A DNA stretch of 64,000 nt from a virus, in IMG/VR virus record IMGVR_UViG_3300006139_000001; one strand, 5' to 3'. Both the position numbers and the translations under genes were made by a program. The notes below the pieces were generated by a model that was given only the letters and a program-made list of their open reading frames with translations, was not told the DNA's origin and ran no database searches. This document shows positions 860 through 62,993 of this stretch, piece after piece; within the stretch, counting starts at the first letter, position 1, and every line of letters starts with the position of its first letter.

Positions 860-887
860 AAATTTATATGCACTGATAGGAGGATTT

Positions 888-1923: not shown

Positions 1924-2231
1924 TGAAAACAAGTAACCTGAACAAATCTGTTTAGACGCATAGTGTTCATATAAAAGGTGAAGATTTTAATAATAGAGTT
2001 AATTTTTTGGAGAAGGAAATTATAACGTTTCAGAAAACGATTTTCTGATAAATATACTTGTTCACATAACGAACAGCGCTTTATGACGGCGGCTATGATT
2101 GCAAAGCTGAAAAGTTTATTTTCAAATATGGGCTGAACTGTATATCATAAAGCCTATGCTTTGAAAGAGTTCTACGGATATACAAAATATAGAACCATAG
2201 TAGAGAGTCATTAGTTATTTTATGCAGGGAG

Positions 2232-4195: not shown

Positions 4196-4196
4196 T

Positions 4197-4646: not shown

Positions 4647-4665
4647 TTTATTATCATTTATAATT

Positions 4666-4706
4666 GGGGGTTACGAGACTAACAATCTTGTAACCCTATT
4701 TTTTTG
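4666..4706 (+). terminator. Rho-independent terminator-like hairpin plus T-run after the membrane-protein gene. Also a candidate att core (imperfect 9-bp inverted arms ggttacgag / cttgtaacc).
   Basis: ggttac(N15)gtaacc followed by tattttttt. Confidence 0.4.
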
Positions 4707-4891
4707 CGCTATTCGTTTGTAAAATATTCTATTAAGTAATAGGAGATTTTATAAAAGAATACCATATCTTGTGTTTCTTCAATATGTAATCGGCAGATAT
4801 TGAAGTGCTGGCTATCAAATTTTAATCTCCTTAATTAAGTGAATCCCCTGTTTCACATAGTTAAGGATATTGCCTACTAAAAAAAATATAA

Positions 4892-6502: not shown

Positions 6503-6762
6503 ACAATACCTCCTTATAATAGAACCCGCACTTACAATATTCTGCCTTTTAGTATTATATCATAAATGCGGGCGTTTTTCAATATTTATTATTTACATTT
6601 GTTTTTCTGATGTAATTGGTTCTTTTGTAGAAGTTGATTTAGCTTCCCTGCTTATAGCATCTTTAATAACATCTTCTAAACTTTTGCCATGTTTATTAAA
6701 GTGTTCTGAAATGATGATTTTTGTTCCGTTATGTATAAAATATTGTTTATTATTCTGTTCGC

Positions 6763-30365: not shown

Positions 30366-30752
30366 TCAATCTTTATCAGTGATGCAAAAATTCTTTAAAT
30401 TATCTAGTATATGAAAACGAATAAGGCATAAAATCATTTGGTATATATCTCCTTCGCAACTATCCCATTCAAAATAAACTGAATTTTCTCTTACCATTTC
30501 AATTAGTTCATCAATTTTATCTTCAAAACATTCTGATGCCTCTGCTCCTGTATCGGTTGTTACCCAAGTGTCGTATGCCGTTTCTTCTCGCCTAATTCGT
30601 GGTTCTAACTCAGTTTTAATGCGGAACTCATAATGTTGTCTAGTGTCTTGCTCTTTTTTAAGTTTTATATTTAACTCTCGAATTATATCCCGTTGTTCAT
30701 CAATTTTGTATTTAAGTTGGCGTATGTATTCTTCATATTCTTTTTCGCTCAT
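30366..30752 (-). CDS. Hypothetical protein (coiled-coil N-terminus)
   Basis: 128-aa ORF. Confidence 0.3.
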   Translation of the reverse strand: MSEKEYEEYIRQLKYKIDEQRDIIRELNIKLKKEQDTRQHYEFRIKTELEPRIRREETAYDTWVTTDTGAEASECFEDKIDELIEMVRENSVYFEWDSCEGDIYQMILCLIRFHILDNLKNFCITDKD

Positions 30753-31546
30753 ATTTTACCTCGCAACACTGATAACAAATAGTTATCGAGATAGTTTTCT
30801 AGTATTTTGTCGGCAGATTTCAATATTTCATCATTGCTATTATCAAATAATTCTTCTGCTATTCCGCCACCTATTGCACATAGAGTATCTGTATCACATT
30901 TCAAACTAAAAACATTTCTTATAAATTCTGTGTAGCTATTTGCTTCATAAACACATCTAATTGCAACTGGCACACTCCCTTGGCATGTTTCATTCCAAAG
31001 ATAGTCGTGTTTGATTTCGTTAATGCTTAAAGCTGCACTATATGTATATTTGTCTTTTGGATAATGTGAAATAGTATACTGTAAAATATCATCTCGTGTA
31101 TATCCATTTTTCGCCATCCAAATACACATTGCTGTTATGATTGCACCTTTCAATCCTTCCGGATGGTTATGTGTGCATTCTGCGGATTTTTTAGCATACT
31201 CAATTACTTTATCTATTGTTTTAAAATGGTCTGCGACAAATGATACTCTCATAGCAGAGCCATTACCATAACTTTCATATGGTTTATCTTCTTGTTCATC
31301 AATCCATTCAGCAAAACGACTACCATAACCAACATCACGATATTTCAATCCAAAGAACTGATATGATTGTGCAAATGGAATATTATGTTCAATCGCATAT
31401 TTTGTAGCAATGCTCATTACTGTGTCATCTGTAAACTTGCATTTATCTGATAATAGTGCAGCGGTTTTGTCATTAAAACCTTCTGGTTTTTTGAATTCAT
31501 ATTGAGAACCAATAATGTCGCCAAGTATTGCTCCTTTAATTGCCAT
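30749..31546 (-). CDS. ADP-ribosylglycohydrolase (ARH/DraG family)
   Basis: N-terminal GAILGDIIGSQYEF and the family signature YGNGSAMRVS. 265 aa. Confidence 0.75.
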   Translation of the reverse strand: MAIKGAILGDIIGSQYEFKKPEGFNDKTAALLSDKCKFTDDTVMSIATKYAIEHNIPFAQSYQFFGLKYRDVGYGSRFAEWIDEQEDKPYESYGNGSAMRVSFVADHFKTIDKVIEYAKKSAECTHNHPEGLKGAIITAMCIWMAKNGYTRDDILQYTISHYPKDKYTYSAALSINEIKHDYLWNETCQGSVPVAIRCVYEANSYTEFIRNVFSLKCDTDTLCAIGGGIAEELFDNSNDEILKSADKILENYLDNYLLSVLRGKI

Positions 31547-35337: not shown

Positions 35338-36648
35338 TCATTCTGCATCGTAAATCAGTTCCTCGGCTTCTTCAATGTCAGGAGCATCAGCAGTGTCCTT
35401 AATAATGCCCTCCAGCACCTTGAATGCAAAAGATTTCGTTTTATAAGCCGTAAACTTAGAACGATTGTCGATTCTCACAACTATGCCTTCAGTAACATGA
35501 CTACCATTGGCAAGCGGTTCGGGAATATCAAGATACTGTGCACATCTTTCGTTCAAATCTTCCCAAGTGGTATAAAGGAATTTTTCAAGAAGCGGAACAT
35601 ATTCGCAACCAAGACGGTCACACCATTTAATCGTTTCCTCGGTAGGAATTTCAATGGTAATGCCATCATCATTGGTCATTGTAATGCGATAGATATAGCA
35701 CCTATTTTCGCCAGGATTGCAACCATATGTAAAAATCGTTTCAGCACCATACTGTTTGGTGAACTCTTTATCCTTAACCTTAGAATTGCTACACTTAGGC
35801 ATAATCGGAGTGTTTTCATCAATCCAGCCGACAATTTCACCATACACGGTCATTCCCTTTGGAAGTTTATCAACAAAGAAGTCGTTGTACTTCTTACGGA
35901 ACGCATTAGAACCATAGTAACCACCGTCGTAATCTCTCAAAACAACACGGCGAGTACCACTGATAATCTGAAACTTAGAAGTAACCTTATCCGGCATATG
36001 GAATAACTTCTTCAAAATAGGATTGCGCTTGGTTGTAGTGAATTCCAGGCAGTTGCTTACACGGAAAGAAGTACCATGCAACTTGCGAGTAAGATAGATA
36101 ATATCGTTCTCTCTAAATGCTTGCTGGTTATATGCAAGCTGCTCCGTATCAATATGCTCTGTGAAGAAAGGATAAGAAATCTTCTGGTGTTCCTCTTTCT
36201 TATTCTTAGAAATTTTTACACCACCAGAATGAGTTCTTCGATTACCACGAGGAATATACTTTTTGCAAATCTCATGACCATCAAGAACCGTAATCTGGTC
36301 GCCATCTTTCAGGCTTTCAACATCGGTATACTTCGCCAAAACAGCGACGGGAAGTACCAAACCATCAGATTTCTCACCACGGAGTTTTAATGCTCGAATA
36401 TTTCTCTTGTCGGGTTCAAGATAACCACCGACATTATTACCATTTTCATCTTTCCTGCGAACCAAGTTATTGTCATTTGCAAATTCTTCACTAAGCTGAC
36501 CATCCACAGGAAAATAAATAACTCTATCCCCCGCAGCGTAGCTCATATCGACAATAACGTTGTTCCCGAAAATCTCACAACACTGTAGCCTGTCGGCGTT
36601 AGAATGCTTATGGATTTCTTTAATTGTCGTAATATAAGCACAATACAT
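35338..36648 (-). CDS. ATP-dependent RNA ligase (Rnl2-like nucleotidyltransferase)
   Basis: Motif I LTRKLHGTSFR (KxHGxx, lysine adenylation site as in T4 Rnl2). Motif IV TEGIVVRIDN. Motif V KTKSFAFK. 436 aa. Confidence 0.6.
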   Translation of the reverse strand: MYCAYITTIKEIHKHSNADRLQCCEIFGNNVIVDMSYAAGDRVIYFPVDGQLSEEFANDNNLVRRKDENGNNVGGYLEPDKRNIRALKLRGEKSDGLVLPVAVLAKYTDVESLKDGDQITVLDGHEICKKYIPRGNRRTHSGGVKISKNKKEEHQKISYPFFTEHIDTEQLAYNQQAFRENDIIYLTRKLHGTSFRVSNCLEFTTTKRNPILKKLFHMPDKVTSKFQIISGTRRVVLRDYDGGYYGSNAFRKKYNDFFVDKLPKGMTVYGEIVGWIDENTPIMPKCSNSKVKDKEFTKQYGAETIFTYGCNPGENRCYIYRITMTNDDGITIEIPTEETIKWCDRLGCEYVPLLEKFLYTTWEDLNERCAQYLDIPEPLANGSHVTEGIVVRIDNRSKFTAYKTKSFAFKVLEGIIKDTADAPDIEEAEELIYDAE

Positions 36649-36660
36649 TAATCTTTCTCC

Positions 36661-36888
36661 TTACTTTTTCTTTTTCTTTGCTGTGCACTTTAGTTGGTGC
36701 TTTCTATCAGAAGTATTAGAATTAATATCTGTCTTTTTCTGATTTACTTCTTTATCCTTAAAAATAAGAGGTATCTTTTTGGACTCATACCAGCAACGTG
36801 GACATCGGTGAAATTCGTATGCTTTACTATCGTAAAAGCTCATTACACGTTTCATGACCTGGTTGCATTTCCTACAGAACATAATCAC
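36661..36888 (-). CDS. Small zinc-ribbon protein
   Basis: CRKC...CPRC. Lys-rich tail. 75 aa. Confidence 0.3.
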   Translation of the reverse strand: MIMFCRKCNQVMKRVMSFYDSKAYEFHRCPRCWYESKKIPLIFKDKEVNQKKTDINSNTSDRKHQLKCTAKKKKK

Positions 36889-36914
36889 AATACTCCTTTC
36901 TTGACTTCATATAC

Positions 36915-36964
36915 ATTATAGCACATTCCGTTCTGTTTGTCAATACTTTTTCTGATTTAATTTA
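36915..36964 (-). promoter_or_regulatory. Consensus promoter TTGACA-17-TATAAT plus conserved upstream element
   Basis: rc(36938-36943)=TTGACA, rc(36915-36920)=TATAAT. Motif at 36945-36964. Confidence 0.55.
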
Positions 36965-38168
36965 TGATTTTTTGTGAATACTCTAATAGTGTATCATGTT
37001 CGTTTGTTAGGCGTTCTTCGATAACAGCAGATAGCAAAGCATTTAACACAACACCAATTTCCTTACCGGAATAACCAACAGCTTTTATGTCCTTTCCATC
37101 TACCTTTAGATGTGATATTTTATAACATTCATTCCTGCACTTTGGCAAACATTCTCCCATACTATCGGCAAATACATAATAGGTTGTAGTGCTATCAAGA
37201 TATGAAGTGCATCTTAGTGCAGAAACAACATCATCTGCTATAGTATCATTATAATTAAGTACACGCCTTATTACAATCTGCGGAACAAGTTCATCGTCGC
37301 TGTAAGCACGAATATTATATGTCCACTTACGAATACCGCAAACATTCTTGATAGTTTTGTTATCAAACTTCAAGCGCTGCAATATCTCTTTTTGCTTATC
37401 TTCATCAAAATTGAACAACAAGGCAATTCTAACATTTGTGGATGTATCAAAAATACCTATCATTGTCATTGCGCTATTAACCATTCTATCTGTAAGTTCT
37501 GGAACAACAACTTGTAGAATTTTACCCATAACAACAGAATAACCATGCGATAGCGCTTTTGTTATTTCTGAATTGATACGCTCTACTGAAATGTTTTTTA
37601 GAAGATTCTTGTTTTCATAAATTGACCGTAATGTTTTTGATTCAATATCATATCCAAGAGTAATTGAAAATCTGATTGCTCTGAGGATTCTAAGTGCGTC
37701 CTCACTAAATCTATCATCTGGTTTTCCAACACATTTAATTACTTTATTCTTTATATCACTTTTACCACCAAAGAAATCAATCAAACCAATAGAAGGATTA
37801 TATGCCATTGCATTGATTGTAAAATCTCTGCGTCTCAAATCCTCTTTTAAGCTATTTGTAAATGTTACTTCTACTGGATGCCTATTATCTTCGTATTCAC
37901 CATCTATTCGATAAGTTGTTACCTCGTACTGTTCATCATCCATAACAATAGTAACCGTTCCATGTTTTAATCCAGTTGGAATGATTTTGTTGTCACTAAA
38001 AACTTCTACAATTTGCTTCGGCAAGGCAGAAGTGCAAATATCCCAATCATGCGGCACTAAGCCTATGATGCTATCACGGACGCATCCGCCAACAACATAG
38101 GCTTCATAACCACATTTATTGAGCTTATTCAAAATGTACTTTGCGTTGTTAGGTAATCTTAATTCCAC
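36957..38168 (-). CDS. tRNA nucleotidyltransferase (class II CCA-adding enzyme / poly(A) polymerase head domain)
   Basis: YVVGGCVRDSIIGLVPHDWDICT (GGxVRD...DxD). 403 aa. Confidence 0.75.
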   Translation of the reverse strand: MELRLPNNAKYILNKLNKCGYEAYVVGGCVRDSIIGLVPHDWDICTSALPKQIVEVFSDNKIIPTGLKHGTVTIVMDDEQYEVTTYRIDGEYEDNRHPVEVTFTNSLKEDLRRRDFTINAMAYNPSIGLIDFFGGKSDIKNKVIKCVGKPDDRFSEDALRILRAIRFSITLGYDIESKTLRSIYENKNLLKNISVERINSEITKALSHGYSVVMGKILQVVVPELTDRMVNSAMTMIGIFDTSTNVRIALLFNFDEDKQKEILQRLKFDNKTIKNVCGIRKWTYNIRAYSDDELVPQIVIRRVLNYNDTIADDVVSALRCTSYLDSTTTYYVFADSMGECLPKCRNECYKISHLKVDGKDIKAVGYSGKEIGVVLNALLSAVIEERLTNEHDTLLEYSQKIIN

Positions 38169-39112
38169 GGATTATTCACTTCCTCCAAGAATTTGGCAAG
38201 TTTACCATCATGATAGAACACCAAATCATTCTCAGTAATAGGTTTACCAAAGTAATGCTTAACAATCTGGTGGAAGATTTCGGCATTCAGACACTTAAAT
38301 TCAACATCGTTAGAGTCGCTGTTATGAATCTTCATATATCCATCAGTGCCTTCAATCTTGTACAATTCAAACATTTCAACCCTTACAAGCTGACCGATAC
38401 CAAGAGGGCAACTATTTACAGACGTTTTCAACTCGGAAAGAGAAAATCCACAGCCTGCTCCATATTCACGAGGGACACTAATAATAATCTCATCTTCACC
38501 TAGACTGAAAACAGAAACACCAGAAATTGTATCCATAATATGCTTGCACAAAATATTCATAAGGTAATGTTCATATCTAATCTGCTTTTTGGGGTTGCAA
38601 GCGCCAAGAATAACCTGGCGAATATATTTGCTATGTATAATATGCTGGTTATCGGTAAACTTAGCCATAAACTGTTCCCAAGTATCTGCTCCATCAAAAA
38701 TCTTGGTAGAGTAATGCTTCATCGCAGAGAAGTTCGCTTTTTTCATATCAATAGATATAAACGCACTACCGTCGTTGTCCTCTACATATACATTCCTCTT
38801 AGAAACAACATACTCAGTTGGGTGGTTATCATTAATAAAAGCGTTGTATTCATCCTTTGCCTTAATAAAGTCAATAATAGAGTCTTTAACTTTATTGTAA
38901 TATTCAAAATAATCCTGCTCATTTGCAAATCGCTGCAATTCAGCACAAAACACATCGAACTTATCTACACAATCGAACAGGATGTCGATGGTTTGCAAAC
39001 GCTCATAAAAATATGGATTATCAAAGACAACAATAGGCAAATTGCTATCTTTGCAGAAACGCTTTTTCAGCGCAATGGAATTCATTACTTCTTCTCTGGT
39101 CATATGTAGCAT
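38159..39112 (-). CDS. Hypothetical protein
   Basis: 317-aa ORF overlapping the CCA-enzyme start by 10 nt (same operon). Confidence 0.3.
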   Translation of the reverse strand: MLHMTREEVMNSIALKKRFCKDSNLPIVVFDNPYFYERLQTIDILFDCVDKFDVFCAELQRFANEQDYFEYYNKVKDSIIDFIKAKDEYNAFINDNHPTEYVVSKRNVYVEDNDGSAFISIDMKKANFSAMKHYSTKIFDGADTWEQFMAKFTDNQHIIHSKYIRQVILGACNPKKQIRYEHYLMNILCKHIMDTISGVSVFSLGEDEIIISVPREYGAGCGFSLSELKTSVNSCPLGIGQLVRVEMFELYKIEGTDGYMKIHNSDSNDVEFKCLNAEIFHQIVKHYFGKPITENDLVFYHDGKLAKFLEEVNNPWN

Positions 39113-39118
39113 CCTCCT

Positions 39119-40171
39119 TTAACCTAAACAAACCTTTTCATTCACACTTGCAACAAAGTCGTTCACCTTATTCATATCAACTCGCTCCGGCAGAATTGTG
39201 TTCTCTTTGTCGTAGTCAAGGCGTTTCTCTAAACCATCAACCATTTCATAGAACTCTGCTGTTGGCTGTCTATTTTCATCAAGATACTCACCATTGCGAA
39301 TTGCCATTAGTAAATCATGTTCTGTCTCTCGATAAGTATTGATTTCGCCTTTTTCAAGAATGTCAAAACACATAAAGTACAATCTTACTAGGTGCATCAT
39401 GTGTTTGCCTAGCTTATCATGCGCAATAGCTTTTTCATTTCTCTTGCCGATTTTACCATAAGCCTTGACAATGGCGTGCATCTCAGACCACATATCCTTA
39501 AAGTCACGCAATGGATAATGTGTAAGGTTTACATCCATAAAGATTTCAGAATCGTAATCCTCTCTGAAGGACTTATCAATAAACAACTTGATTGCATCTT
39601 CTGGATGTTCAAAATACTTCGCCTTATAATCAACGGATGCGTGTTCAATACTTTTTAAGATATTTGCTTCTTGCTGGCTTTGTGAAACGAGACGAGCTGC
39701 TTTATTTTCTAAACGACGCAACTGTGCATTAGCATATCCACCGAATGAATGTACAGCAGCCTGAGACAAAAATAGGCTCTTATTTGCCAATAACTGCTCC
39801 CCCGCATACGAAAGATACAAATAGTGTTCCGACTTTAACCCAAGAATCTCGATTGTGTTTGGATTACATGAGCATAGCAACTTTATAATCTTATCAAACG
39901 AATATACGGTTGTATCTGTTTCCACTTCAACAACCTGCTCAAAATCTTTCCCAATAAAAATGTTACGGCGTGAATTTGTTGCTACACCACGAACATCAAG
40001 GTCAGAATTTTCATTACTTGTACCATAGGCATGACTACCACCAAGACCAAGCAAAATGATATTGCCACCAAGATTTTCGTTATATCTCAAAAAATCGTAC
40101 TCTGTAGATTGTAGCTTTCTCTTTATTTCAGTTAGATTCATTTTCATCCTCCTCGATTGTATACTTGACAT
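39119..40171 (-). CDS. Pol-beta-superfamily nucleotidyltransferase (GS...DxD), first gene of the RNA-repair operon
   Basis: LLGLGGSHAYGTSNENSDLDVRGV nucleotidyltransferase core followed by a ~230-aa helical region. 350 aa. Specific family (CD-NTase, ANT, tRNA-end NTase) not resolvable by eye. Confidence 0.55.
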   Translation of the reverse strand: MSSIQSRRMKMNLTEIKRKLQSTEYDFLRYNENLGGNIILLGLGGSHAYGTSNENSDLDVRGVATNSRRNIFIGKDFEQVVEVETDTTVYSFDKIIKLLCSCNPNTIEILGLKSEHYLYLSYAGEQLLANKSLFLSQAAVHSFGGYANAQLRRLENKAARLVSQSQQEANILKSIEHASVDYKAKYFEHPEDAIKLFIDKSFREDYDSEIFMDVNLTHYPLRDFKDMWSEMHAIVKAYGKIGKRNEKAIAHDKLGKHMMHLVRLYFMCFDILEKGEINTYRETEHDLLMAIRNGEYLDENRQPTAEFYEMVDGLEKRLDYDKENTILPERVDMNKVNDFVASVNEKVCLG

Positions 40172-40260
40172 TTTAGAAAATCCGATGTATAATATGCGTA
40201 TATCGGGTCACATTTTCTAAACCGTACTCTAAGTATAGCAGATAATTTTCTAATTGTCAA
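40165..40260. promoter_or_regulatory. Divergent promoter/operator switch region: plus-strand TTGACA(40165-40170)-17-TATAAT(40188-40193); minus-strand TTGACA(rc 40255-40260)-17-TATACT; three copies of the 9-bp operator-like word TTAGAAAAT
   Basis: Word at 40173-40181 (plus orientation), 40212-40220 and 40245-40253 (reverse orientation). They flank or overlap the -10/-35 boxes between the Xre repressor gene and the minus-strand operon. GGAGG RBS before ATG 40171. Confidence 0.6.
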
Positions 40261-40303
40261 GAGGAAATTTAGAATATTTGACCGCACTTTAGGAGGAAAC
40301 ATT

Positions 40304-40663
40304 ATGGAATCCATTTTATATCAGAGAATAAAAGCATTATGTGAAAGAAAAGGAATAAGCATTGCAAAATTAGAATCAGAATTAGGATTTGGTAACGCTT
40401 CTATCAAAAAATGGGGTCGTGTCAGCTCTCCATCTGTAGATAAGATAATAAAAGTCGCTGGTTATTTTGACGTTTCGGTAGATTACTTACTTGGTAGGAC
40501 AGATATAGAGGGTTCTATATCTGAGGTAATTGGCGACGAAGATATTATTTCATTCCAAAGAGCAAGACAGAAAATGACTCAAAAGGATAAAGAGCGTATG
40601 ATGCAAATGCTTAAACTTGGCTTTGAGTATGCTTTCTCTGACCAGGAGGGCGATGGTAAATAA
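40304..40663 (+). CDS. XRE-family helix-turn-helix transcriptional regulator (phage repressor-like)
   Basis: HTH LCERKGISIAKLESELGFGNASIKKWG. 119 aa. Confidence 0.75.
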   Translation: MESILYQRIKALCERKGISIAKLESELGFGNASIKKWGRVSSPSVDKIIKVAGYFDVSVDYLLGRTDIEGSISEVIGDEDIISFQRARQKMTQKDKERMMQMLKLGFEYAFSDQEGDGK

Positions 40664-41272
40664 ATGGTGCGATATGTCTATATAAATAATTTGGTGCTTG
40701 ACATTTATGAAATGCTACCAAAGATTCAGTTTCCTCTCGATATTAAAAGTGTTATCAATTATTTCCCTAACTGTAGATATATGTCTTATCAAGATTTTGC
40801 AAAGATTAATAGATGCTCAATCGAAGATGTTATTCAAATTTGCGAAAGCAAATCTGGTTGCACACATTACGACATAATGCAAAATAGATACTTAATTCTT
40901 TGCAATCAGTCAACACAGGACAACAATAACATTGGTAGGCAACGTTGGACTTGTGGGCATGAAATTGGTCATGTGGCTTGTAATCATCATGCTATATCTG
41001 CTTATGAGAAACTTTCAGAAAACAGCCTATTGCAGATTGACAATGCCGAATATGAAATGGAAGCCGATTATTTTGCTGCCACCATATTAGCACCATTTCC
41101 ATTATTTAAGTTGTTTGATGTTAAGTCTGCTATTGACATTCAAAACATATTTGGTCTTTCTACGGAAGCATCTTTGTATAGGTATAAACAATATTTAAAA
41201 TGGCTCAAAACAAGAGTTAAAACTTCCTGGGAAAATGATATGATAAGACTTTATAAGCAGAAGAATATTTAA
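40664..41272 (+). CDS. ImmA/IrrE-family metallopeptidase (anti-repressor protease)
   Basis: HEXXH zinc motif CGHEIGHVACNHH. Immediately downstream of the Xre gene. Confidence 0.7.
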   Translation: MVRYVYINNLVLDIYEMLPKIQFPLDIKSVINYFPNCRYMSYQDFAKINRCSIEDVIQICESKSGCTHYDIMQNRYLILCNQSTQDNNNIGRQRWTCGHEIGHVACNHHAISAYEKLSENSLLQIDNAEYEMEADYFAATILAPFPLFKLFDVKSAIDIQNIFGLSTEASLYRYKQYLKWLKTRVKTSWENDMIRLYKQKNI

Positions 41273-41323
41273 CCATTCATTTTTAATCATCTCACGGAGA
41301 AACTAACCGTGGGGTGATTTTTT

Positions 41324-41755
41324 ATGAATGAACAAGAATACAAGCATATTCGCAATTTAGCGTGGGATTTACTGATTGATGCAAACATCTCACAGTTGCC
41401 GGTTGATATAAATGCTATTGCGGCTTTATATGATTTGCAGCATTTAGTTGATAATCGTAAGTCCCTATATGACAATACTCTTTTTGTTGCCGAAGGTATC
41501 TTGAAAATTTTTGGATTGACAAACCATAAATTCACAAGATACCTCACAGTCAGAATTCTTGCTCCAATGATTGTTTTCAAAGAGTTAGGTGTCAATTCTG
41601 CGGAAGAAATGAGCAATCTTTCTGGACTTCCAATAGACTTGGCAAAGCAACGTTTTGAGCGCTTTGAAATGCTCTTAGTACGGAATGCTTTTGAAACCTC
41701 ACGCCTTGAAACCATTGTATTATCACAATTCCGTGAATGGTTGAATAATCGTTAA
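41324..41755 (+). CDS. Hypothetical protein
   Basis: 143-aa ORF with a strong RBS-like ggggtga upstream. Confidence 0.3.
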   Translation: MNEQEYKHIRNLAWDLLIDANISQLPVDINAIAALYDLQHLVDNRKSLYDNTLFVAEGILKIFGLTNHKFTRYLTVRILAPMIVFKELGVNSAEEMSNLSGLPIDLAKQRFERFEMLLVRNAFETSRLETIVLSQFREWLNNR

Positions 41756-42423
41756 TCTTTGTTTTCAAGAACAAAGATAGAAGAATCAAGAATCAAAAAC
41801 GGACGAACACCGCAGCAATAGCCACAAACGCCCCAATTCAGAAAGCCATCGGAGTAGACATAGCAAACGTCACGAGAATAATCATTGCTCGGAGTGGATG
41901 CAGGAGTGATAGTCCACCACCAGTCAGGATAGTTAGACTTCAAACCAAGGATTTTATGATATTTTGCGTACTCACTTGCAGATAAAAGAGTAATTTTATC
42001 AGTACAAGCACCATAGTCATCCAAACCATCAAGAGAGGTCAAATCTCGCTCCATAGGGATGATATTATTCGCTCCAACTAGCTTAGAAATTTTGTTGTAG
42101 TATTCGCCGTTTAGCAGAGTGCGGATAGGTGACTGTTTCCAATCAGCGCAATCTCCAAACTTCTTATCACTATATGCGAACTGCTTTGAAATGACTCTCG
42201 TACCAGACTCAGTTTGTTCTAAAACGATGAATTCCTCATCACCAATCTTAAAGACATCCTTCGGTTTCAGAGTGGAGAGCTGCACTTTCCCCATATTCAG
42301 AATGTCATTGATTTGTGCAGAATCAATGTCAATGATAACTTTACCATCTTCAATTGTGACATTTGCCTTATCAATCGTAATCTTCATTTTACCTTTCTCC
42401 TTTTTCTTGCGATTAAAGAACAT
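41752..42423 (-). CDS. Hypothetical protein
   Basis: 223-aa ORF. Confidence 0.3.
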   Translation of the reverse strand: MFFNRKKKEKGKMKITIDKANVTIEDGKVIIDIDSAQINDILNMGKVQLSTLKPKDVFKIGDEEFIVLEQTESGTRVISKQFAYSDKKFGDCADWKQSPIRTLLNGEYYNKISKLVGANNIIPMERDLTSLDGLDDYGACTDKITLLSASEYAKYHKILGLKSNYPDWWWTITPASTPSNDYSRDVCYVYSDGFLNWGVCGYCCGVRPFLILDSSIFVLENKD

Positions 42424-42485
42424 ATGCTAAACCTTCTCTTTTCAACGGTTTTGTATTGCGGATTTTGGTTTTGTAAAACAGTGTT

Positions 42486-43541
42486 TTACTCTCCATTATT
42501 ATTTGTATCAATACCAAACATTATAGAACTGCTATCACCAGACACATACTGCGGAAGCTGACCATTCCACTTTTTAATCCACATTTCCTGTAAAATCTGT
42601 TCAGTAATAGATTTTTCAAGTAGCTCATTAGCCTCTGCTTCTGCCTCTGCTGCAATGACCTTTGCTTCTGCTTCGGCTTCTGCATTGGTCTTTTTAACAG
42701 TAGCGTCTGCCTCTGCTTTTTCGATTGCTCTTTGGTTTTCAATAGCTTGCTGTTCGGCTTCAAGTTGTGCTTGCTGCTTTGCCGCAATAGCCTGGTTATA
42801 CGAATCTTCAAAATCGGCGTTGCTGATAATCACCTTGTTAATATATACAACATTCTCACCATACTTCTCATCGAGAGATTTTTGAAGATTCTCCATAGCA
42901 ATAGGTTCAATAATAGAACGGTTAGTTGCATCTGTATCAGATAGGCTCTTGCTACTTGCCTTTATAGCAGATGCTACAATGCTCTGATTAATAAGTGCAT
43001 CTTTATAATTAGCTACGTTTGCATAAATCCAAGCAGACTTCTCAGGATTAATTTGATATGTGATAATAACTCCATCATAGTAAATAGCGGTTCGCTTAGA
43101 AGTCTCAGACCAAATTTGCCCATCAAATGTAATATCCTGCTGTTTATTATTCACCTTTTCAATAGATTGTATATAAGGTAACTTCCAGTTGAAACCATTT
43201 TGAACAGTAACAGAATCAATCTGTCCAAATGTAGTGCGTACACCAGTGTAACCAGTTGGAATAATTACGATTGCGCAAGAGAATGTAAATAGTACGATAG
43301 CTACCAAAACGCCAACAATAGTGTACTTAGTTTTTACCTTGGTATATGTACCATCGCCATGATACGAATTTCTAACCTTTCTTGCTCGTGCAGAGTTAAT
43401 CATAACTGGAATTACAATAGCTACGACAAAAATTAAGATAGCCACAATTTTCAAAAATACTGTCATTTTTGTTTTAATCTCCTTATCTTGATGATTGAAT
43501 ATCATCTGAATATTTAGTTTTTGAAGTATATATATTATCAA
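42486..43541 (-). CDS. SPFH/band-7 (prohibitin/HflK-like) membrane protein
   Basis: N-terminal TM segments, SPFH core, and a long Ala/Glu/Gln-rich coiled coil (AKQQAQLEAEQQAIENQRAIEKAEADA...). Confidence 0.65.
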   Translation of the reverse strand: MIIYILQKLNIQMIFNHQDKEIKTKMTVFLKIVAILIFVVAIVIPVMINSARARKVRNSYHGDGTYTKVKTKYTIVGVLVAIVLFTFSCAIVIIPTGYTGVRTTFGQIDSVTVQNGFNWKLPYIQSIEKVNNKQQDITFDGQIWSETSKRTAIYYDGVIITYQINPEKSAWIYANVANYKDALINQSIVASAIKASSKSLSDTDATNRSIIEPIAMENLQKSLDEKYGENVVYINKVIISNADFEDSYNQAIAAKQQAQLEAEQQAIENQRAIEKAEADATVKKTNAEAEAEAKVIAAEAEAEANELLEKSITEQILQEMWIKKWNGQLPQYVSGDSSSIMFGIDTNNNGE

Positions 43542-44694
43542 AATACTGCCTTAAATCATTTATTGTACAATTACCAGCAATATCATTGGTATAATTGAGA
43601 TGAGAAACCAAAAGAGAAATTGTTGCATCTTGGATAACACTCTTTGATAAACCAATATCTTTTTGTACTCTGCCCAAGAATTCATCAAGGTCGAATTTTC
43701 CATATCTGATAGATTCTTGAAAATCGTTATGCACATTCGTTTTATCTTCAATGCAAGGATTTATTTCTTCTTTTTGGCACTCAGTAGGAAACGCACCCGC
43801 TCCATGTCTTGTAAAATAAGACCTCGTTATGTAACAGATTTCAACATCAAAACCATATGGCTTAATTCGATTTATGGGGATAAATGAAGTTGTTTTGCTT
43901 GCTGTAATATATGGAAGTGCTTTTTTGTTATCCTCGTCAAGTTCAAGTCCCTGCGCACCCTCAAAAACAATGATGTCATACATAGAGATAAGTTTATCAA
44001 ATGAAATCTGAATAACCTCTCTCTGCATTTGTCTAAGGTCTGACAAATAATGTTTAGCTAAACCATAAGAATTAATAAGTTTTTGATATTCTTCTGGTAT
44101 CTCTGTTATACCATAGCTGGCAAGTCGTTCTGGGAGATACTTATAAGCAATATCATGCAAATAACGAATGATTTCGTAATCTGTTTTGTGCTGTAATTCG
44201 CCGTATTTTAATGAATACCTTCCATCTTCGTATCGCTTTTGTGTTTCCCAAATACCATATCCACAAGAGCCATGCCTATTGTTTGCCCTTGATGTTTCAA
44301 CAATTTGGTTGATAAACATATCGTATGGTGTTGTTACTCTGCATTCCGGCGAAATATAACACTTTGGGAATTCATATCCAAATTCTTTCATTATGGTGCA
44401 GAGTGTTTCTTTTTCTTCAACAAACACCATAGGGTTCACCATAAAGTCTTGGTCAAAGTAAGTATGAGCATTATCAAATGAGCCAGAACCGAAGTGATGG
44501 AAAATGTGTCGAATGCCATTTTTCAATTCTACTGTATGACCTCTTTGACATCCACCATTAAAGAGAATATTTAAACAGAATTTGTTATCTTGATTTGCTT
44601 TTTGTGAAAAGTAGTGAGTTGCAAGACCTTTGCCTTCATCTCCATAATTGCTACCTACTACTACTTTGACCTCAACTTTACTCATATCTATCAC
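43483..44694 (-). CDS. Adenylosuccinate-synthetase-family protein (PurA homolog; candidate PurZ)
   Basis: N-terminal VVVGSNYGDEGKGLATHYF (GDEGKGK P-loop of PurA) and NGGCQRGHTV (PurA QGGHNAGHT region). 403 aa, shorter than bacterial PurA (~430). Confidence 0.7.
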   Translation of the reverse strand: MIDMSKVEVKVVVGSNYGDEGKGLATHYFSQKANQDNKFCLNILFNGGCQRGHTVELKNGIRHIFHHFGSGSFDNAHTYFDQDFMVNPMVFVEEKETLCTIMKEFGYEFPKCYISPECRVTTPYDMFINQIVETSRANNRHGSCGYGIWETQKRYEDGRYSLKYGELQHKTDYEIIRYLHDIAYKYLPERLASYGITEIPEEYQKLINSYGLAKHYLSDLRQMQREVIQISFDKLISMYDIIVFEGAQGLELDEDNKKALPYITASKTTSFIPINRIKPYGFDVEICYITRSYFTRHGAGAFPTECQKEEINPCIEDKTNVHNDFQESIRYGKFDLDEFLGRVQKDIGLSKSVIQDATISLLVSHLNYTNDIAGNCTINDLRQYFDNIYTSKTKYSDDIQSSR

Positions 44695-45548
44695 CAGGAA
44701 ATTTCAGTATTGGATTCAGCAACAACTTCATCCTTTGCGTCAGTAACAATGTTTACAATCGCATTGGAGATATTATTCAAATTAACAACACGAAAATGCC
44801 TTTCATCGAGATATTCACCAAACGATTTCTTAATATGTTCTTCGTGCCAATTATAGCTTGTTTCTCTGTCATCAACGGCAAGATGGTAAATATCAAACTT
44901 AGCACTTGCAGCTTCATACAAAGAATCAGTCTCAACATCACCCTGCAACTTATCACCGGTTACACGGCTTAAAGCACTATGTGGAAGATAGGGATTCAGA
45001 GGTTCATCGCCCATTGTAATGATAATGCCCTTCTTGCCACGTTTCCAGCAATCCAATTTTGTGTGCTTCAAGCCAAAATACCAAGCGCCAGTATAAGACT
45101 CATAGGCATTTCCGCCTCCGCCACCTTCAAAATAAATCTTGTCAAGTTGTTCTGCAATACGAACATCAGATTCAAACTGAGATGCCTGAATTGGTGCAGA
45201 GTCATACGCTAAGTCGCCAATCCCCATAACAAGAAACTCAACATCAGCAACTTTCTCATAGAGCTTGGTCATTACTTCATTCAGCTTTTTAGCAACCTCT
45301 GCCGCAGCGCTTCCCATACTTCCAGTAACATCAAGAGCAAGAATTACAGGAATTGTATTGGGATGCTCTGCGCTATCACAGCACTCACGCACAACATTAT
45401 AAGGGTCTAACTCAGGCTGAATTCTGTGTGATTTAAATAAATCCTGTGCCGAATAGCTAGAATGAAGTGTCCCATCATTAAGAACCGTTCTACCTACAGA
45501 TTTTGAGTAAGAAGAATATGCACTAGTAGTCCAAGAACCGCCACCCAT
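44691..45548 (-). CDS. von Willebrand factor A (vWA) domain protein
   Basis: MIDAS-like ILALDVTGSMGSAA. 285 aa. Confidence 0.5.
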   Translation of the reverse strand: MGGGSWTTSAYSSYSKSVGRTVLNDGTLHSSYSAQDLFKSHRIQPELDPYNVVRECCDSAEHPNTIPVILALDVTGSMGSAAAEVAKKLNEVMTKLYEKVADVEFLVMGIGDLAYDSAPIQASQFESDVRIAEQLDKIYFEGGGGGNAYESYTGAWYFGLKHTKLDCWKRGKKGIIITMGDEPLNPYLPHSALSRVTGDKLQGDVETDSLYEAASAKFDIYHLAVDDRETSYNWHEEHIKKSFGEYLDERHFRVVNLNNISNAIVNIVTDAKDEVVAESNTEISW

Positions 45549-46153
45549 TATTCATCCTCCGTTTCCTTATCACCATCGTCATCATCGGTGTCAAAATCGA
45601 ACATACCGTCAAACATATCGGCAAATCCGTTGCTACCCATCATCATAAAGGGAAGCATAGCACCCATTCCGCCAGATGTATTTCCAGAAGTCATACCGTT
45701 TCCGGTAGCACCCTTCATCATCTCTGACATGAGCATATAAGACATCATCTTATTCATGCCTTTCTTGCCCTTCATAATGTCAGAACCGAACATAGAAACA
45801 ATCTTGCCATAAAAATAGGTGTTACCCATAAACACATGACGCTCTGGCAAAATATTCTCAACCGTAGAATCCTCATAGTTGATAACCTTAATTGTGTCCT
45901 TATCATTAGAAACAACACACTTCGGCTTTCCAGAAACGATGATGATGTCACCAGGTTCAACCTTGTTGGTAGGAATAACAAAGAAGAATTCCTCTCCAAC
46001 GTTGAAAACAAAGTTATTGCAATTCGTCAGTCGGTTAGTTTTAAGATTATAAGTCTTATAACCACCATTGGTTTTAACTGCGATGCCCCCGTTCATGGAG
46101 AGTCTGCACATCCCATTGGCAACCTTGCCAAACATTCCATTAAACATATCCAT
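45548..46153 (-). CDS. Hypothetical protein with Gly/Met-rich region and acidic tail
   Basis: 201-aa ORF. C-terminus DTDDDDGDKETEDE. Confidence 0.3.
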   Translation of the reverse strand: MDMFNGMFGKVANGMCRLSMNGGIAVKTNGGYKTYNLKTNRLTNCNNFVFNVGEEFFFVIPTNKVEPGDIIIVSGKPKCVVSNDKDTIKVINYEDSTVENILPERHVFMGNTYFYGKIVSMFGSDIMKGKKGMNKMMSYMLMSEMMKGATGNGMTSGNTSGGMGAMLPFMMMGSNGFADMFDGMFDFDTDDDDGDKETEDE

Positions 46154-46185
46154 TTTTAGTTCCTCCGTTATATGTAATTTTTAAT

Positions 46186-46425
46186 TTAATGGCATAATAC
46201 ATACTTTGTGTATCGAGCTTCATTCCCATATCTATCGGTGCATACCATATCTTCACCATTGATATTGAACTGTTTGCGTAAATTGTAGATAATGGCACTC
46301 AGTCTTGTTGCGCCATATAAGTCAATCGCCTCCAGGCTTGTAATTGAACCGAACTTCTGCAAATGTTCTAACACTTTTTCTGTCTTATTCATTGACCTTG
46401 TGTTTCTCGTTCTTCGCTTCATCAT
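46186..46425 (-). CDS. Small basic protein (winged-helix DNA-binding?)
   Basis: 79 aa. RBS GGAGG 8 nt upstream. Conserved motif directly upstream. Confidence 0.35.
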   Translation of the reverse strand: MMKRRTRNTRSMNKTEKVLEHLQKFGSITSLEAIDLYGATRLSAIIYNLRKQFNINGEDMVCTDRYGNEARYTKYVLCH

Positions 46426-46490
46426 TACTAATCCTCCAATCGTTTTTCTGATTTAATTATTTGGATACTCGAATAAGGTGTTTGTTTGGT

Positions 46491-47165
46491 TCACCTTACA
46501 TTAGACATTATATCATACTTTTTTGGATTTGTCAATACTTTTTCGGATTTAATTCTAATTTCTTTTCGTTGCATTATCCACCAGTAATCAACTTGCTTGT
46601 AATCTCTACCAAAATAGTAGATATAGATATAATCATCTTTTTCAGAAACAAACAATCTACCATTGTAGCTGACCGGCGCTCTTTTGATTGACTTCATGAT
46701 TTTTCTGGCAATCTTGTCAACAGTACTTTGTGTCATACCCCAATTTCCATCGAAATATGGTTCAATCCAATTATTAAAATTGAGCCGATGTTCTTTATAT
46801 TCTTCTCGCTGCTTTAGTATACTCTTATAAGCCACCTCCAGTTCTTCAATAGTGTGCGGCTCTTTAGAATACCTAAAATCCTCTTTCTTTTCCTGGATTT
46901 CTTCTAAGTTCAAAATAGTATTGAAAAAAGATGTACCAAACGGCTCTATCTGTTTATGTATATAGAGATAATCCATATACATATTAAATTCTTCCTCATC
47001 GTAGTCTGGCTCTGAATCATAGAAATGCTCAGTAAATTCTCTTACAAAGTAATGCTGAAAAAGCCAATCAATGAACTTATTGCTTGGCTTCAATCGTCTA
47101 AATGTTAAATCCTCTGTCCTGTTAATATGTAGCGCCTTTTCAATCAAATCAGTACGTATATTCAT
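46491..47165 (-). CDS. Hypothetical protein
   Basis: 224-aa ORF. SD AAAGGAG and a consensus promoter upstream. Confidence 0.35.
   Translation of the reverse strand: MNIRTDLIEKALHINRTEDLTFRRLKPSNKFIDWLFQHYFVREFTEHFYDSEPDYDEEEFNMYMDYLYIHKQIEPFGTSFFNTILNLEEIQEKKEDFRYSKEPHTIEELEVAYKSILKQREEYKEHRLNFNNWIEPYFDGNWGMTQSTVDKIARKIMKSIKRAPVSYNGRLFVSEKDDYIYIYYFGRDYKQVDYWWIMQRKEIRIKSEKVLTNPKKYDIMSNVR
46507..46555 (-). promoter_or_regulatory. Consensus promoter TTGACA-17-TATAAT plus conserved upstream element (overlaps the 3' end of the upstream ORF)
   Basis: rc(46530-46535)=TTGACA, rc(46507-46512)=TATAAT. Motif variant tttttcGgatttaat at 46538-46552. Confidence 0.5.
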
Positions 47166-47188
47166 TGCTAATCTCCTTTGTTGTACTT

Positions 47189-47238
47189 ATTATATCACAC
47201 TTTATAGCGAATGTCAATACTTTTTCGGATTTAATTTG
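47189..47238 (-). promoter_or_regulatory. Consensus promoter TTGACA-17-TATAAT plus conserved upstream element
   Basis: rc(47212-47217)=TTGACA, rc(47189-47194)=TATAAT, then AAAGGAG and ATG 47165. Motif at 47220-47235. Confidence 0.55.
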
Positions 47239-47417
47239 TTGTCTTTTTTATAAACAAGATACAAGTAAGAATAACCACCTATATTTCCTACTGGTGCAGC
47301 ATTCAAACACATTGCAATCTCGTTAGAATCATATACTCTATTACCCTGTCTATACTGTTTACCAAAGTTTATATCACCGAATCCCCAGACCAGTTTGGGT
47401 TTGCTTTCATTACTCAT
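47214..47417 (-). pseudogene. Fragment resembling the C-terminal TRD/motif-IX region of a C5-cytosine methyltransferase
   Basis: QGNRVYDSNEIAMCLNAAPVGNIGGYSYLYLV closely parallels the M.HhaI region QGERIYSTRGIAITLSAYGGG...GGYLV. 67-aa ORF that stops before motif X. Confidence 0.4.
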
Positions 47418-61964: not shown

Positions 61965-62039
61965 TGGTAAGCTGTATGGGAGTCGAACCCATGCTTCTGC
62001 CGTGAAAGGGCAGCGTCTTAACCACTTGACTAACGGCTC
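61965..62039 (-). tRNA. tRNA-Glu (anticodon UUC), CCA encoded
   Basis: rc reads GAGCCGT-TA-GTC..GAC-G-CTGCC-CTTTCAC-GGCAG-AAGC-ATGGG-TTCGACT-CCCAT-ACAGCTT-A-CCA. One C:A mismatch in the acceptor stem. Confidence 0.6.
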
Positions 62040-62042
62040 ATA

Positions 62043-62119
62043 TGGCAGGAGAGGAAGGACTTGAACCCTCATCTACATCTGTTTTGGAGACAGGCGTTTT
62101 ACCATTAAACTACTCTCCT
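62043..62119 (-). tRNA. tRNA-Trp (anticodon CCA), CCA encoded
   Basis: Acceptor AGGAGAG/CTCTCCT. Anticodon loop CTCCAAA. T-arm GAGGG-TTCAAGT-CCTTC. Confidence 0.55.
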
Positions 62120-62122
62120 TTA

Positions 62123-62198
62123 TGGTCTGAGTGGCGGGACTCGAACCCGCAGCCTCGTGAACCCAAATCACGCCGTCTACCAGTTGACGTACACCCAG
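62123..62198 (-). tRNA. tRNA-Pro (anticodon UGG), CCA encoded
   Basis: Acceptor CTGGGTG/CACTCAG. Anticodon stem-loop CGTGA-TTTGGGT-TCACG. T-arm GCGGG-TTCGAGT-CCCGC. Confidence 0.65.
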
Positions 62199-62282
62199 AT
62201 ATAAATTCCTGTGACCAGCAGGAATCATATTTTTTATATCACGGACTCACATCTAAACAGTATTGATTGCCGTAAAGGTCTT

Positions 62283-62359
62283 TGGAGCGGATAAAGGGAC
62301 TTGAACCCTCACCACCTGCTTGGAAGGCAGGTATGCTAACCATTAAACACTATATCCGC
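62283..62359 (-). tRNA. tRNA-Gly (anticodon UCC), CCA encoded
   Basis: Acceptor GCGGATA/TATCCGC. Anticodon stem-loop CCTGC-CTTCCAA-GCAGG. T-arm GAGGG-TTCAAGT-CCCTT. Confidence 0.7.
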
Positions 62360-62363
62360 ATAA

Positions 62364-62450
62364 TGGTGCGGGAGAAGGGATTTGAACCCTCACGGTGGTT
62401 ACACCAGCGGATTTTAAGTCCGCTGCGTCTGCCGATTCCGCCACTCCCGC
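62364..62450 (-). tRNA. tRNA-Leu (anticodon UAA), long variable arm, CCA encoded
   Basis: Acceptor GCGGGAG/CTCCCGC. Anticodon stem-loop GCGGA-CTTAAAA-TCCGC. Variable arm GGTGTAACCACC. T-arm GAGGG-TTCAAAT-CCCTT. Confidence 0.7.
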
Positions 62451-62663
62451 ATAAGTCACAAGTGGATTAAAAATCGTCATCGTTAATCATTCAAATCCGT
62501 CGATTTGACACTTGTGAGAATATCCAACTTGGCTCTACATCACTATGGCAAATTGGTTGCCAAATGGTTTACTAACTCCATCAAAAGGTGCTGACAATTT
62601 GGACATGTAGCAGCCATACATGATTTGAATTTATGCTAAGTAGAGAGGTCACATAAATTCTAA

Positions 62664-62756
62664 TGGCGACAGCGGTAGGATTTGAACCCACGGGCGGCTC
62701 ATCACCGCCGCCTGATTTCAAGTCAGGTGCAATAAACCAAGCTCTGCCACGCTGCC
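62664..62756 (-). tRNA. tRNA-Ser (anticodon UGA), long variable arm, CCA encoded
   Basis: Acceptor GGCAGCG/CGCTGTC. Anticodon stem-loop CCTGA-CTTGAAA-TCAGG. Variable arm CGGCGGTGATGAGCCGCCCG. T-arm GTGGG-TTCAAAT-CCTAC. Confidence 0.65.
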
Positions 62757-62759
62757 ATA

Positions 62760-62834
62760 TGGTACTCCGTAATGGAATCGAACCAATATCTATCGCTTAT
62801 AAGGCGATTGCTCTAACCTCTGAGCTAACGGAGC
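62760..62834 (-). tRNA. tRNA-Ile (anticodon UAU, reads AUA), CCA encoded
   Basis: Acceptor GCTCCGT/ACGGAGT. Anticodon stem-loop ATCGC-CTTATAA-GCGAT. T-arm TTGG-TTCGATT-CCAT. Confidence 0.55.
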
Positions 62835-62837
62835 ATA

Positions 62838-62913
62838 TGGTGGAACTAATGGGAATTGAACCCATGACCTCCTGCTTGCAAGGCAGGTGCTCTCCCATCT
62901 GAGCTATAGCCCC
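62838..62913 (-). tRNA. tRNA-Ala (anticodon UGC) with G3:U70 identity pair, CCA encoded
   Basis: Acceptor GGGGCTA/TAGTTCC. Anticodon stem-loop CCTGC-CTTGCAA-GCAGG. T-arm ATGGG-TTCAATT-CCCAT. Confidence 0.7.
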
Positions 62914-62916
62914 ATA

Positions 62917-62993
62917 TGGTGCGTCAGGAGGGACTCGAACCCACGACCTACAGATTAGAAGTCCGTTGCTCTATCCAACTGAGCTACTGGCGC
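62917..62993 (-). tRNA. tRNA-Arg (anticodon UCU), CCA encoded
   Basis: Acceptor GCGCCAG/CTGACGC (one C:A mismatch). Anticodon stem-loop ACGGA-CTTCTAA-TCTGT. T-arm GTGGG-TTCGAGT-CCCTC. Confidence 0.6.

Follow-up and report, generated by a model that had tools for sequence, protein, structure and literature searches.

Pairs consisting of an XRE-family repressor and an M78 (COG2856) protease are a widespread means of coupling transcription to damage signals, and they occur in integrative and conjugative elements, temperate phages, the Deinococcus radiation response, and in cyclic-oligonucleotide-based anti-phage signalling systems (CBASS) and other immune operons. Here, we analyze such a pair, encoded by the genes xre and immA, together with the two facing promoters and the four repeated sites that precede it, in a 64,000-nucleotide stretch of viral DNA (IMG/VR record IMGVR_UViG_3300006139_000001). 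This stretch, referred to below as the window, represents 64 kb of a genome of roughly 150–165 kb, and its source is a large phage of gut Clostridia.

In ICEBs1 and phi105 of Bacillus subtilis, the gene for the XRE repressor comes first and is co-transcribed with that for a short M78 protease lacking a GAF domain; both the repressor's own promoter and a divergent one are under its control, and the protease cuts the C-terminal part of the repressor (PMC6868357). ImmR is cut between F95 and M96, in the loop between the last helices, and cleavage has likewise been described for DdrO by IrrE and for CapH by CapP in response to single-stranded DNA (ssDNA) or DNA damage (PMC6868357, bioRxiv 10.1101/2022.04.27.489752). 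The CapH/CapP pair is divergent from the operon that it regulates, with a shared promoter region (bioRxiv 10.1101/2022.04.27.489752). In CapP and IrrE, a C-terminal GAF domain forms an ssDNA-binding groove, and many of these proteins have a cysteine switch (PMC13228613). For phage ASZ22RN, it has been shown that cloned immR confers immunity and that the addition of immA abolishes it (PMC12323379). Convergent promoters under the control of a single repressor are known from pR and pL of coliphage 186 (and P2), where the transcripts overlap and interfere with each other (PMC3675496).

The locus described here has the features of an ImmR/ImmA module: an Xre protein with a helix-turn-helix (HTH) domain and C-terminal helices, and an adjacent co-directional M78 gene with an intact HEXXH motif and the downstream Glu. 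It is a new architectural variant of the known ImmR/ImmA (CapH/CapP-like) switch, with an unusual layout, and not a new kind of system. As judged from the sequence, there is about an even chance that this XRE plus COG2856/M78 switch, set in face-to-face promoters, acts as a local gate that responds to a signal and controls a variable accessory operon with functions in conflict or repair.

Facing promoters and repeated sites

Promoter-like sites were scored by their matches to the sigma-A-type −35 and −10 hexamers, out of 12. The interval between the RlaP gene and xre (start at 40304) is 156 bp long and contains two such sites, by far the best in the 4-kb neighbourhood. P(+), at 40165–40193 on the plus strand, consists of TTGACA (40165–40170), a 17-bp spacer and TATAAT (40188–40193), a 12/12 match. 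P(−), at 40260–40232 on the minus strand, consists of TTGACA (40260–40255), a 17-bp spacer with a TG, and TATACT (40237–40232), an 11/12 match. An earlier annotation of this DNA (the original prediction) had already recognized both of them, the plus-strand TTGACA-17-TATAAT ahead of the Xre gene and the minus-strand TTGACA-17-TATACT, and in this respect it was correct. It had placed them back-to-back, however, whereas P(+) lies on the left and fires rightwards and P(−) lies on the right and fires leftwards, so that both promoters fire inwards and the pair is face-to-face.

The start sites were placed approximately 7 nt past each −10, and all start and overlap figures given here are hexamer arithmetic. 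On this basis, P(+) would start at approximately 40200, giving a leader of approximately 104 nt to xre-immA, and P(−) at approximately 40225, giving a leader of approximately 84 nt to the leftward operon. The predicted transcripts thus overlap by approximately 26 nt, at 40200–40225 on both strands, and each of them crosses the opposite promoter. Footprints of RNA polymerase, taken as −55 to +20 at each promoter, would also overlap, at approximately 40205–40220. With two near-perfect facing promoters, predicted starts approximately 25 bp apart and a putative operator in the early transcribed region that they share, the circuit is unusually compact. An imperfect palindrome, ATCCGATGTATA...TATATCGGGT, at 40180–40208 on the plus strand resembles a terminator and covers the −10 of P(+). 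It was considered as a second operator and then dropped, as it is kept in no relative, and it is probably incidental.

The 9-bp word TTAGAAAAT was found in exact form at 40173–40181 (plus strand), 40212–40220 (minus strand) and 40245–40253 (minus strand), that is, in three copies within 81 bp and in both orientations, in agreement with the original prediction. There are five copies in the 64 kb, against 2.5 expected, and three of the five are in the switch. At least three copies of some 9-mer within 100 bp occurred in approximately 6% of simulated random 64-kb sequences; on the repeat count alone, the cluster is therefore only modestly significant and suggestive. What makes it convincing is the placement of the copies and their conservation. 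The only other 9-mer cluster in the window consists of three copies of AGCAGAGGC at 42631–42717. It sits in an SPFH/band-7-like gene, where it encodes a repeat in an alanine/glutamate-rich protein; it is a coding repeat and not a regulatory one.

A fourth copy of the word, which had been missed when three were reported, has one mismatch (TTAGAATAT at 40269–40277) and is followed by TTGACC. The four sites are denoted A to D. Site A (40173–40181, plus strand) is TTAGAAAAT in the spacer of P(+), beginning 2 bp past the −35, and its position relative to P(+) is invariant among relatives. Site B (40206–40221) is, in minus-strand reading, the 16-mer TTTAGAAAATGTGACC; it is centred halfway between the predicted starts and covers about +6 to +21 of either promoter. 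Site C (40238–40253, TTAGAAAATTATCTGC on the minus strand) extends from the spacer of P(−) into its extended −10, in the same register and orientation towards P(−) as site A towards P(+), and forms a pseudo-palindrome, TTAGA-N6-TCTGn. Site D (40268–40283, TTTAGAATATTTGACC on the plus strand) lies in the xre leader just upstream of the −35 of P(−), the position of an UP element, where other promoters of the phage have an A-tract (UP-like) element. The earlier description of words lying across the −35 and −10 elements thus applies in part: sites A and C lie between −35 and −10, and site B is midway between the starts.

The centres of the four sites are 24–39 bp apart, and sites B and D constitute a 16-nt inverted repeat (GGTCACATTTTCTAAA and TTTAGAATATTTGACC). 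The sites are largely asymmetric. We examined whether each of them contains a true palindrome, and this was rejected, as the left arm of site A, ATTTT, is not conserved at B or D. Palindromic versions of B and D were seen only in a distant clade (L036–L042 among the related loci described below), where they read TTAGA-N6-TCTCA and TAGAATATATTCTA; in the clade of the window, the right half of B and D is GACC(G). The only good matches to the 13-mer AGAAAATNNGACC in the whole window are sites B and D, and two further matches, with one mismatch each, are no more than expected by chance. Across 14 related loci with their flanks, AGAAAATNNGACC was likewise found at sites B and D and nowhere else, and the operator was absent from the integrase region L017.

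To compare the region with its relatives, related loci (L001, L002 and so on) with Xre identities of 42%–95% were taken from viral, genome and metagenome collections and covered as 5–10 kb flanks of contigs. A protein search gave 304 clusters, many of them on contigs of 150–165 kb and one of them on 231 contigs. A nucleotide search with 36000–44000 against cultured phages gave no match, and an exact look-up of the Xre protein in an assembly index returned no record. We obtained 22 distinct related upstream sequences (Xre identity 54–95%) from phage-like contigs of approximately 120–200 kb. In these, P(+) scored 11–12/12 and P(−) 10–12/12, always face-to-face, and the predicted transcript overlap was 19–27 nt in 21 of the 22, the exception being a lineage with a deletion. 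Sites A to D were retained in the 22 sequences as well. The circuit is thus conserved in an abundant family of gut phages of roughly 150 kb.

When 13 of the upstream sequences were aligned, the invariant or near-invariant columns were the four hexamers, the extended −10 of P(−) and the four site cores, whereas the intervening sequence drifts and contains indels. The gaps between A and B (30 bp, except in L007, where site B is degenerate) and between C and D (15 bp) are constant in the relatives that were read directly; the gap between B and C varies from 21 to 24 bp. The site word differs by lineage, being TTAGAAAAT, TGAGAAAAT, (C/T)AAGAAAAT (yAAGAAAAT) or T(T/G)AGATAA, and within a lineage most copies shift together. 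These changes run parallel to changes in the recognition-helix region of Xre (GFGNASIKKW, GFGNSSIKKW, GVGLSSIQKW and GFSNATIKKW), a pattern that is the expectation for putative operators co-evolving with their repressor.

Since the A/B and B/D pairs are inverted repeats of 10 and 16 nt, with both partners inside the same predicted leader, the possibility exists that the sites act in RNA: a B:D (or C:D) pair in the xre leader and a B:A pair in the leftward leader would form 5′-proximal hairpins that set mRNA stability or translation. RNAalifold recovered the B:D stem with a compensatory change at the clade level, from GGTC/GACC to GAGA/TCTC. The covariation term was small (−0.86 kcal/mol), however, the folding energies were not better than those of shuffled controls (z = −1.0 and −0.7), and the region had no Rfam match. 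The pairing of B with D is broken by a central A/T mismatch in the window, L003, L010 and L032, and that of A with B is broken in L010 and L016. A role in RNA would not require the fixed register of A and C, 2–3 bp past each −35, and one word per lineage is common to all four copies. We regard hairpins of this kind as a very improbable explanation, and the four sites are treated below as putative operators in DNA.

The xre–immA island and its described counterparts

Xre (40304–40663, plus strand) is a 119-aa XRE-family protein with its HTH at residues 4–62 (Pfam HTH_3, E 9.6e-7) and C-terminal helices at residues 78–90 and 93–110. It matched the PADLOC capH profile over its full length (E 2e-10), and its best and only PDB sequence match was the N-terminal DNA-binding domain of ICEBs1 ImmR (7t8i). 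An AlphaFold2 model (mean predicted local distance difference test score, pLDDT, of 77) consists of a five-helix HTH joined by a linker to a helical hairpin at the C-terminus, formed by residues 78–90 and 93–110. The structural neighbours found with Foldseek were the repressors of phi106 and the arbitrium phages, SinR, ImmR, CapH and DdrO, all with weak E-values, which is expected because the fold is so small. No structure of 186 CI was among the best Foldseek matches of Xre, and a sequence relationship to 186 CI was not looked for. A search of the window for a second Xre paralogue found none.

The start codon of immA (40664–41272, plus strand) follows directly after the stop codon of xre, and the two genes are probably translationally coupled. 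ImmA is a 202-aa zinc peptidase of the M78/COG2856 family (Pfam Peptidase_M78, E 6.8e-9), and its motifs H99-E100-x-x-H103 and E131-x-E133-A are conserved across 14 homologues, with E131 aligned to a zinc-ligand position of CapP. It matched the CapP structure 7t5t and metalloprotease families of PHROG. The match to the capP profile (E 9.5e-17) covers positions 41–152 of 242, the peptidase part only, and ImmA lacks the GAF domain. An HTH_3 repressor gene is thus followed by an intact Peptidase_M78 gene, as the original prediction had stated. It had also suggested that repression is lifted by the protease. This is the established mechanism of the closest characterized relatives (ImmR/ImmA, immRA, CapH/CapP and DdrO/IrrE), and by analogy it may apply here.

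The third gene of the island (41324–41755, plus strand) encodes a 143-aa paralogue of ImmA that has kept the N- and C-terminal segments and is devoid of HEXXH, i.e. a pseudo-protease. The HEXXH segment was missing in all eight homologues examined (8/8). The paralogue is present in most close relatives and absent from L002, L007, L010 and L036–L042, and it could be a regulator or a decoy of the protease. Its gene overlaps a DUF6273 gene tail-to-tail by 4 nt.

The nearest characterized homologue of Xre is the repressor of Staphylococcus aureus phage phiETA2 (42% identity over 104 aa, including the C-terminal region). As here, a gene for an ImmA-like peptidase (24% identity) comes directly after the repressor gene, and the repressor start is preceded, at a distance of approximately 40 bp, by a leftward TTGACA-17-TATACT promoter. 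A 14-mer has copies in the spacer of that promoter and just upstream of its −35, which reproduces the layout of sites C and D. phiETA2 differs in having cro and an antirepressor behind its leftward promoter and the integrase 3 kb beyond immA. Furthermore, no consensus rightward promoter facing the leftward one was detected in phiETA2, whereas P(+) is perfect here. In comparison with the S. aureus phages (phiETA2, ASZ22RN, Phietavirus/Dubowvirus), the present genome is approximately four times larger and has the additional dead ImmA paralogue.

Similarity to ICEBs1 and phi105 is low outside the HTH, and the signal in those systems is RecA or RapI. The likeness to CapH/CapP lies in the profile matches of both proteins and in the divergent arrangement with the regulated operon; the differences are that CapP has a GAF domain and that CapH/CapP belongs to a bacterial immune operon, whereas the 202-aa ImmA without GAF is found in a phage and next to RNA-repair cargo. 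Convergent promoters with overlapping transcripts are shared with 186 and P2, although here they are predicted from hexamers. In 186, the lytic promoter is strong and suppresses a lysogenic promoter that is weak; P(+) and P(−), in contrast, both score 11–12/12, as they also do in most relatives, and they are so close that the central site B sits in both early transcribed regions. The original prediction had compared the locus with lambda and the sites with OR1–3. Lambda OR does have a repressor gene divergent from an early operon and several repressor sites overlapping promoters, but its back-to-back promoters, three adjacent palindromic operators, cro and self-cleaving S24 domain (CI) are all absent here. 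With face-to-face promoters, four dispersed and largely asymmetric sites, no cro and no self-cleaving domain, the lambda comparison had to be abandoned.

Genes behind P(−) and the possible role of the switch

Three genes on the minus strand lie directly behind P(−). The first encodes a protein of the RNA 3′-end nucleotidyltransferase family RlaP (PF10127; 39119–40141), with a likely start at the ATG at 40141, 6 nt past GAGGAGG. RlaP acts on damaged tRNA (PMC12776372). The second encodes a 317-aa protein (38159–39112) that is next to RlaP in relatives too and for which no Pfam, PHROG, PADLOC, NCBIfam or meaningful PDB match was found. The third encodes a CCA-adding tRNA nucleotidyltransferase (36957–38168) and is the last before the next promoter without an operator. 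No terminator was predicted after this gene, but an independent 12/12 promoter cassette without operator (36943–36915, minus strand) stands ahead of a 75-aa open reading frame (ORF) and an RNA ligase gene, and it is the limit of what P(−) alone controls. The assignment of an RNA-repair operon to P(−) thus holds for RlaP, the 317-aa protein and the CCA enzyme, whereas the RNA ligase is behind a promoter of its own.

The genes behind P(−) are not the same in all relatives, whereas the three-gene island with xre and immA is syntenic across the phage family. RlaP is directly behind P(−) in the window, L002, L005, L010 and L032. In L001, L009 and L013–15, two small ORFs and an ADP-ribosylglycohydrolase gene precede it. 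L034 has extra ORFs before RlaP, among which no ADP-ribosylglycohydrolase homologue was found. RlaP is deleted in L003 and L004, and the switch is retained despite the loss of this first cargo gene; at approximately 5734–5860 of these two loci, what is left of RlaP directly behind P(−) is its ribosome-binding site with the first codons (MNLTEIKNK...). In L036–L042, a gene for an unknown 242-aa protein and then a MazF/PemK-like gene follow P(−). The latter, second behind P(−) at 3690–4106 (minus strand) of L038 and at equivalent positions in L037–L042, encodes a MazF/PemK-type toxin (E 1.2e-34), and no obvious antitoxin was identified for it. The ADP-ribosylglycohydrolase gene itself is found at 30749–31546 (minus strand) in the window, 9 kb from the switch, and at 4398–5201 in L001, between P(−) and RlaP. 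This shift in position between the window and L001, L009 and L013–15 indicates that cargo is shuffled around the switch. Because the cargo varies and the same switch heads other genes in relatives, the idea of a regulator dedicated to the RNA-repair operon, one of two roles offered in the original prediction, was rejected.

Besides P(−), the minus strand of the window has six promoters that match 12/12, with −35 starts at 13768, 25602, 36943, 46535, 47217 and 54347. They share a cassette structure, (A)ATTAAATC(A/C)GAAAAAnnA followed by TTGACA, a 17-bp spacer (with TG in 5/6) and TATAAT. A copy of the upstream element alone was seen near 46450. The operator word was found in none of the six, which lie on both sides of the switch. 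We considered whether the upstream element, ATTAAATCAGAAAAA, could be an Xre site, and this was rejected since its orientation and sequence differ and relatives have only an A-tract beside the −35; it is read here as a putative UP-like element. Relatives have similar cassettes with a lineage-specific A-tract at this place, and the cassettes look like strong early promoters for host sigma A with UP elements.

These cassettes bear on the view that xre and immA are a toxin-antitoxin-like or abortive/exclusion COG2856-XRE moron, where the promoters would belong to a strong early family and the shared word would be a feature of that family. COG2856/XRE pairs have been discussed as modules of toxin-antitoxin type (PMC6868357, PMC10538038), and in relatives P(−) shares an AAAAAC-type element beside the −35 with other cassettes. 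Nevertheless, none of the six other cassette promoters contains the word, and the core promoter elements do not include sites B and D. In addition, the island is not sporadic but conserved in synteny throughout the phage family, and it contains no toxin-like partner, the 143-aa protein being a protease paralogue. We give this view only a slight chance.

A more serious alternative is that the locus is the master lysis-lysogeny switch: Xre would be the prophage repressor, P(−) a key early lytic promoter, and ImmA would induce the phage after DNA damage, as in phi105, ICEBs1 and the S. aureus immRA phages. We ranked the phage immunity region, the other role offered earlier for the Xre/ImmA locus, below the local gate as the less probable of the two. 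Several observations speak for it and weigh against a local gate. The closest characterized homologues are master lysogeny repressors, the phiETA2 repressor with its similarity to Xre over 104 residues and its matching C/D layout among them, and in cultured temperate phages a repressor gene and then an immA-like gene lie near the integrase. The window contains a large serine integrase, and one that is 82% identical is found on the L001 contig at a similar distance from the switch. Between 4892 and 64000, the genes are essentially all on the minus strand, the xre/immA/143-aa island being the only plus-strand cluster within approximately 59 kb, and P(−) has approximately 35 kb of co-directional genes downstream of it, replication genes among them. 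We viewed 64 kb of approximately 150–165 kb, and there may be further operators elsewhere in the genome. A point against the proposed switch itself is that mostly asymmetric sites, as in the clade of the window, are unusual for a dimeric XRE protein.

Against a master switch, no operator accompanies the six perfect promoters with UP-like elements that lie on the same strand to either side of it, and the operator was found nowhere else in the window, in the flanks of the 14 related loci or in the L017 integrase region. Operators that would account for the silencing of lytic promoters were thus not found within the 64-kb window beyond those in the switch itself. Neither was the layout of a lysogeny module, with cro or an antirepressor opposite and the integrase adjacent (cf. 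phiETA2, Javan235 and SDFMU_Pfc): no cro or antirepressor is behind P(−), which is followed first by RNA-repair, ADP-ribosylglycohydrolase or MazF-like cargo, and the integrase is 34 kb off with its own promoter. The longest contigs for many related proteins are 152–165 kb, which weakly suggests free genomes rather than integrated prophages. Since the operators are confined to the switch, the six other promoters lack them, neither cro nor an antirepressor is present, the integrase is far away and the cargo is swappable, we favour the role of a local gate. The module would then be derived from lysogeny-type modules without being the sole master immunity repressor here.

The local gate could work as follows. 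Xre dimers would occupy sites A–D and keep the leftward operon off. Site B would block the early transcribed region of both promoters; sites C (in the spacer) and D (at the UP position) would add to this on P(−), and site A (in the spacer) on P(+). The full 16-mers B and D, together with C, would thus shut P(−), and A and B would shut P(+), so that Xre limits its own level by negative autoregulation. A signal would activate ImmA, and Xre would be cut in or near the C-terminal helical oligomerization region. With Xre removed, repression would collapse and both promoters would open. Because P(+) and P(−) face each other and the polymerase footprints collide, the opened promoters would compete by occlusion and collision. 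No intrinsic terminator was predicted on either strand in 41200–47400; in the absence of a minus-strand terminator between the 47217 and 46535 promoters and the island, antisense read-through of the 143-aa gene, immA and xre is probable, and this read-through from the upstream cassettes would further disfavour xre. The dead 143-aa paralogue may modulate ImmA, which is speculative. The regulated output would be RlaP, the 317-aa protein and the CCA-adding enzyme, with repair of tRNA 3′ ends as the predicted function.

More tentatively than either of the two roles weighed above, we suggest that Xre, ImmA and the dead paralogue constitute a CapH/CapP-like sensor of damage or stress, by which a family of gut-Clostridia phages switches on a swappable counter-defence or repair island when needed, with the shared central operator making the choice between repressor and cargo an all-or-none toggle. 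The cargo would be RlaP plus the CCA enzyme for tRNA 3′-end repair, an ADP-ribosylglycohydrolase or a MazF-like nuclease. If the locus is a local gate, the phage would run repair and counter-defence genes by the sensor logic that bacteria use for their defence genes. If it is a lysogeny switch, the question becomes how a genome full of consensus promoters without operators stays silent. Either way, the 130-bp region is a small, well-defined object for studies of transcriptional interference and repression.

Other features of the window

The window encodes a Pol III alpha-type polymerase, NrdD, DnaB, an NAD ligase, nine tRNAs, a reverse transcriptase of the diversity-generating retroelement (DGR) type and the large serine recombinase mentioned above. 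The recombinase (536 aa, 4892–6502) is transcribed from its own predicted promoter, TTGAAA-17-TATAAT, at 6582–6554. In the region 11–6582, plus-strand genes for a DUF6273 protein, the DGR-like reverse transcriptase, a DUF4376 protein and a small membrane protein converge on the recombinase gene, and the 246-bp gap at 4647–4891 is a candidate phage attachment site (attP).

At 43483–44694 (minus strand), an adenylosuccinate-synthase-like gene matched the PurZ-type family phrog_1211 of PHROGs (E 1.9e-53). The PurZ label was not upheld, as the NCBIfam PurZ model gave 32.9 bits against a cut-off of 300, and a 2-aminoadenine genome is possible but not supported. The nine tRNA genes (Glu, Trp, Pro, Gly, Leu, Ser, Ile, Ala and Arg) form an array at 61965–62993 on the minus strand. 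Together with RlaP, the CCA enzyme and the RNA ligase, this array suggests a heavy investment of the phage in functional tRNAs.

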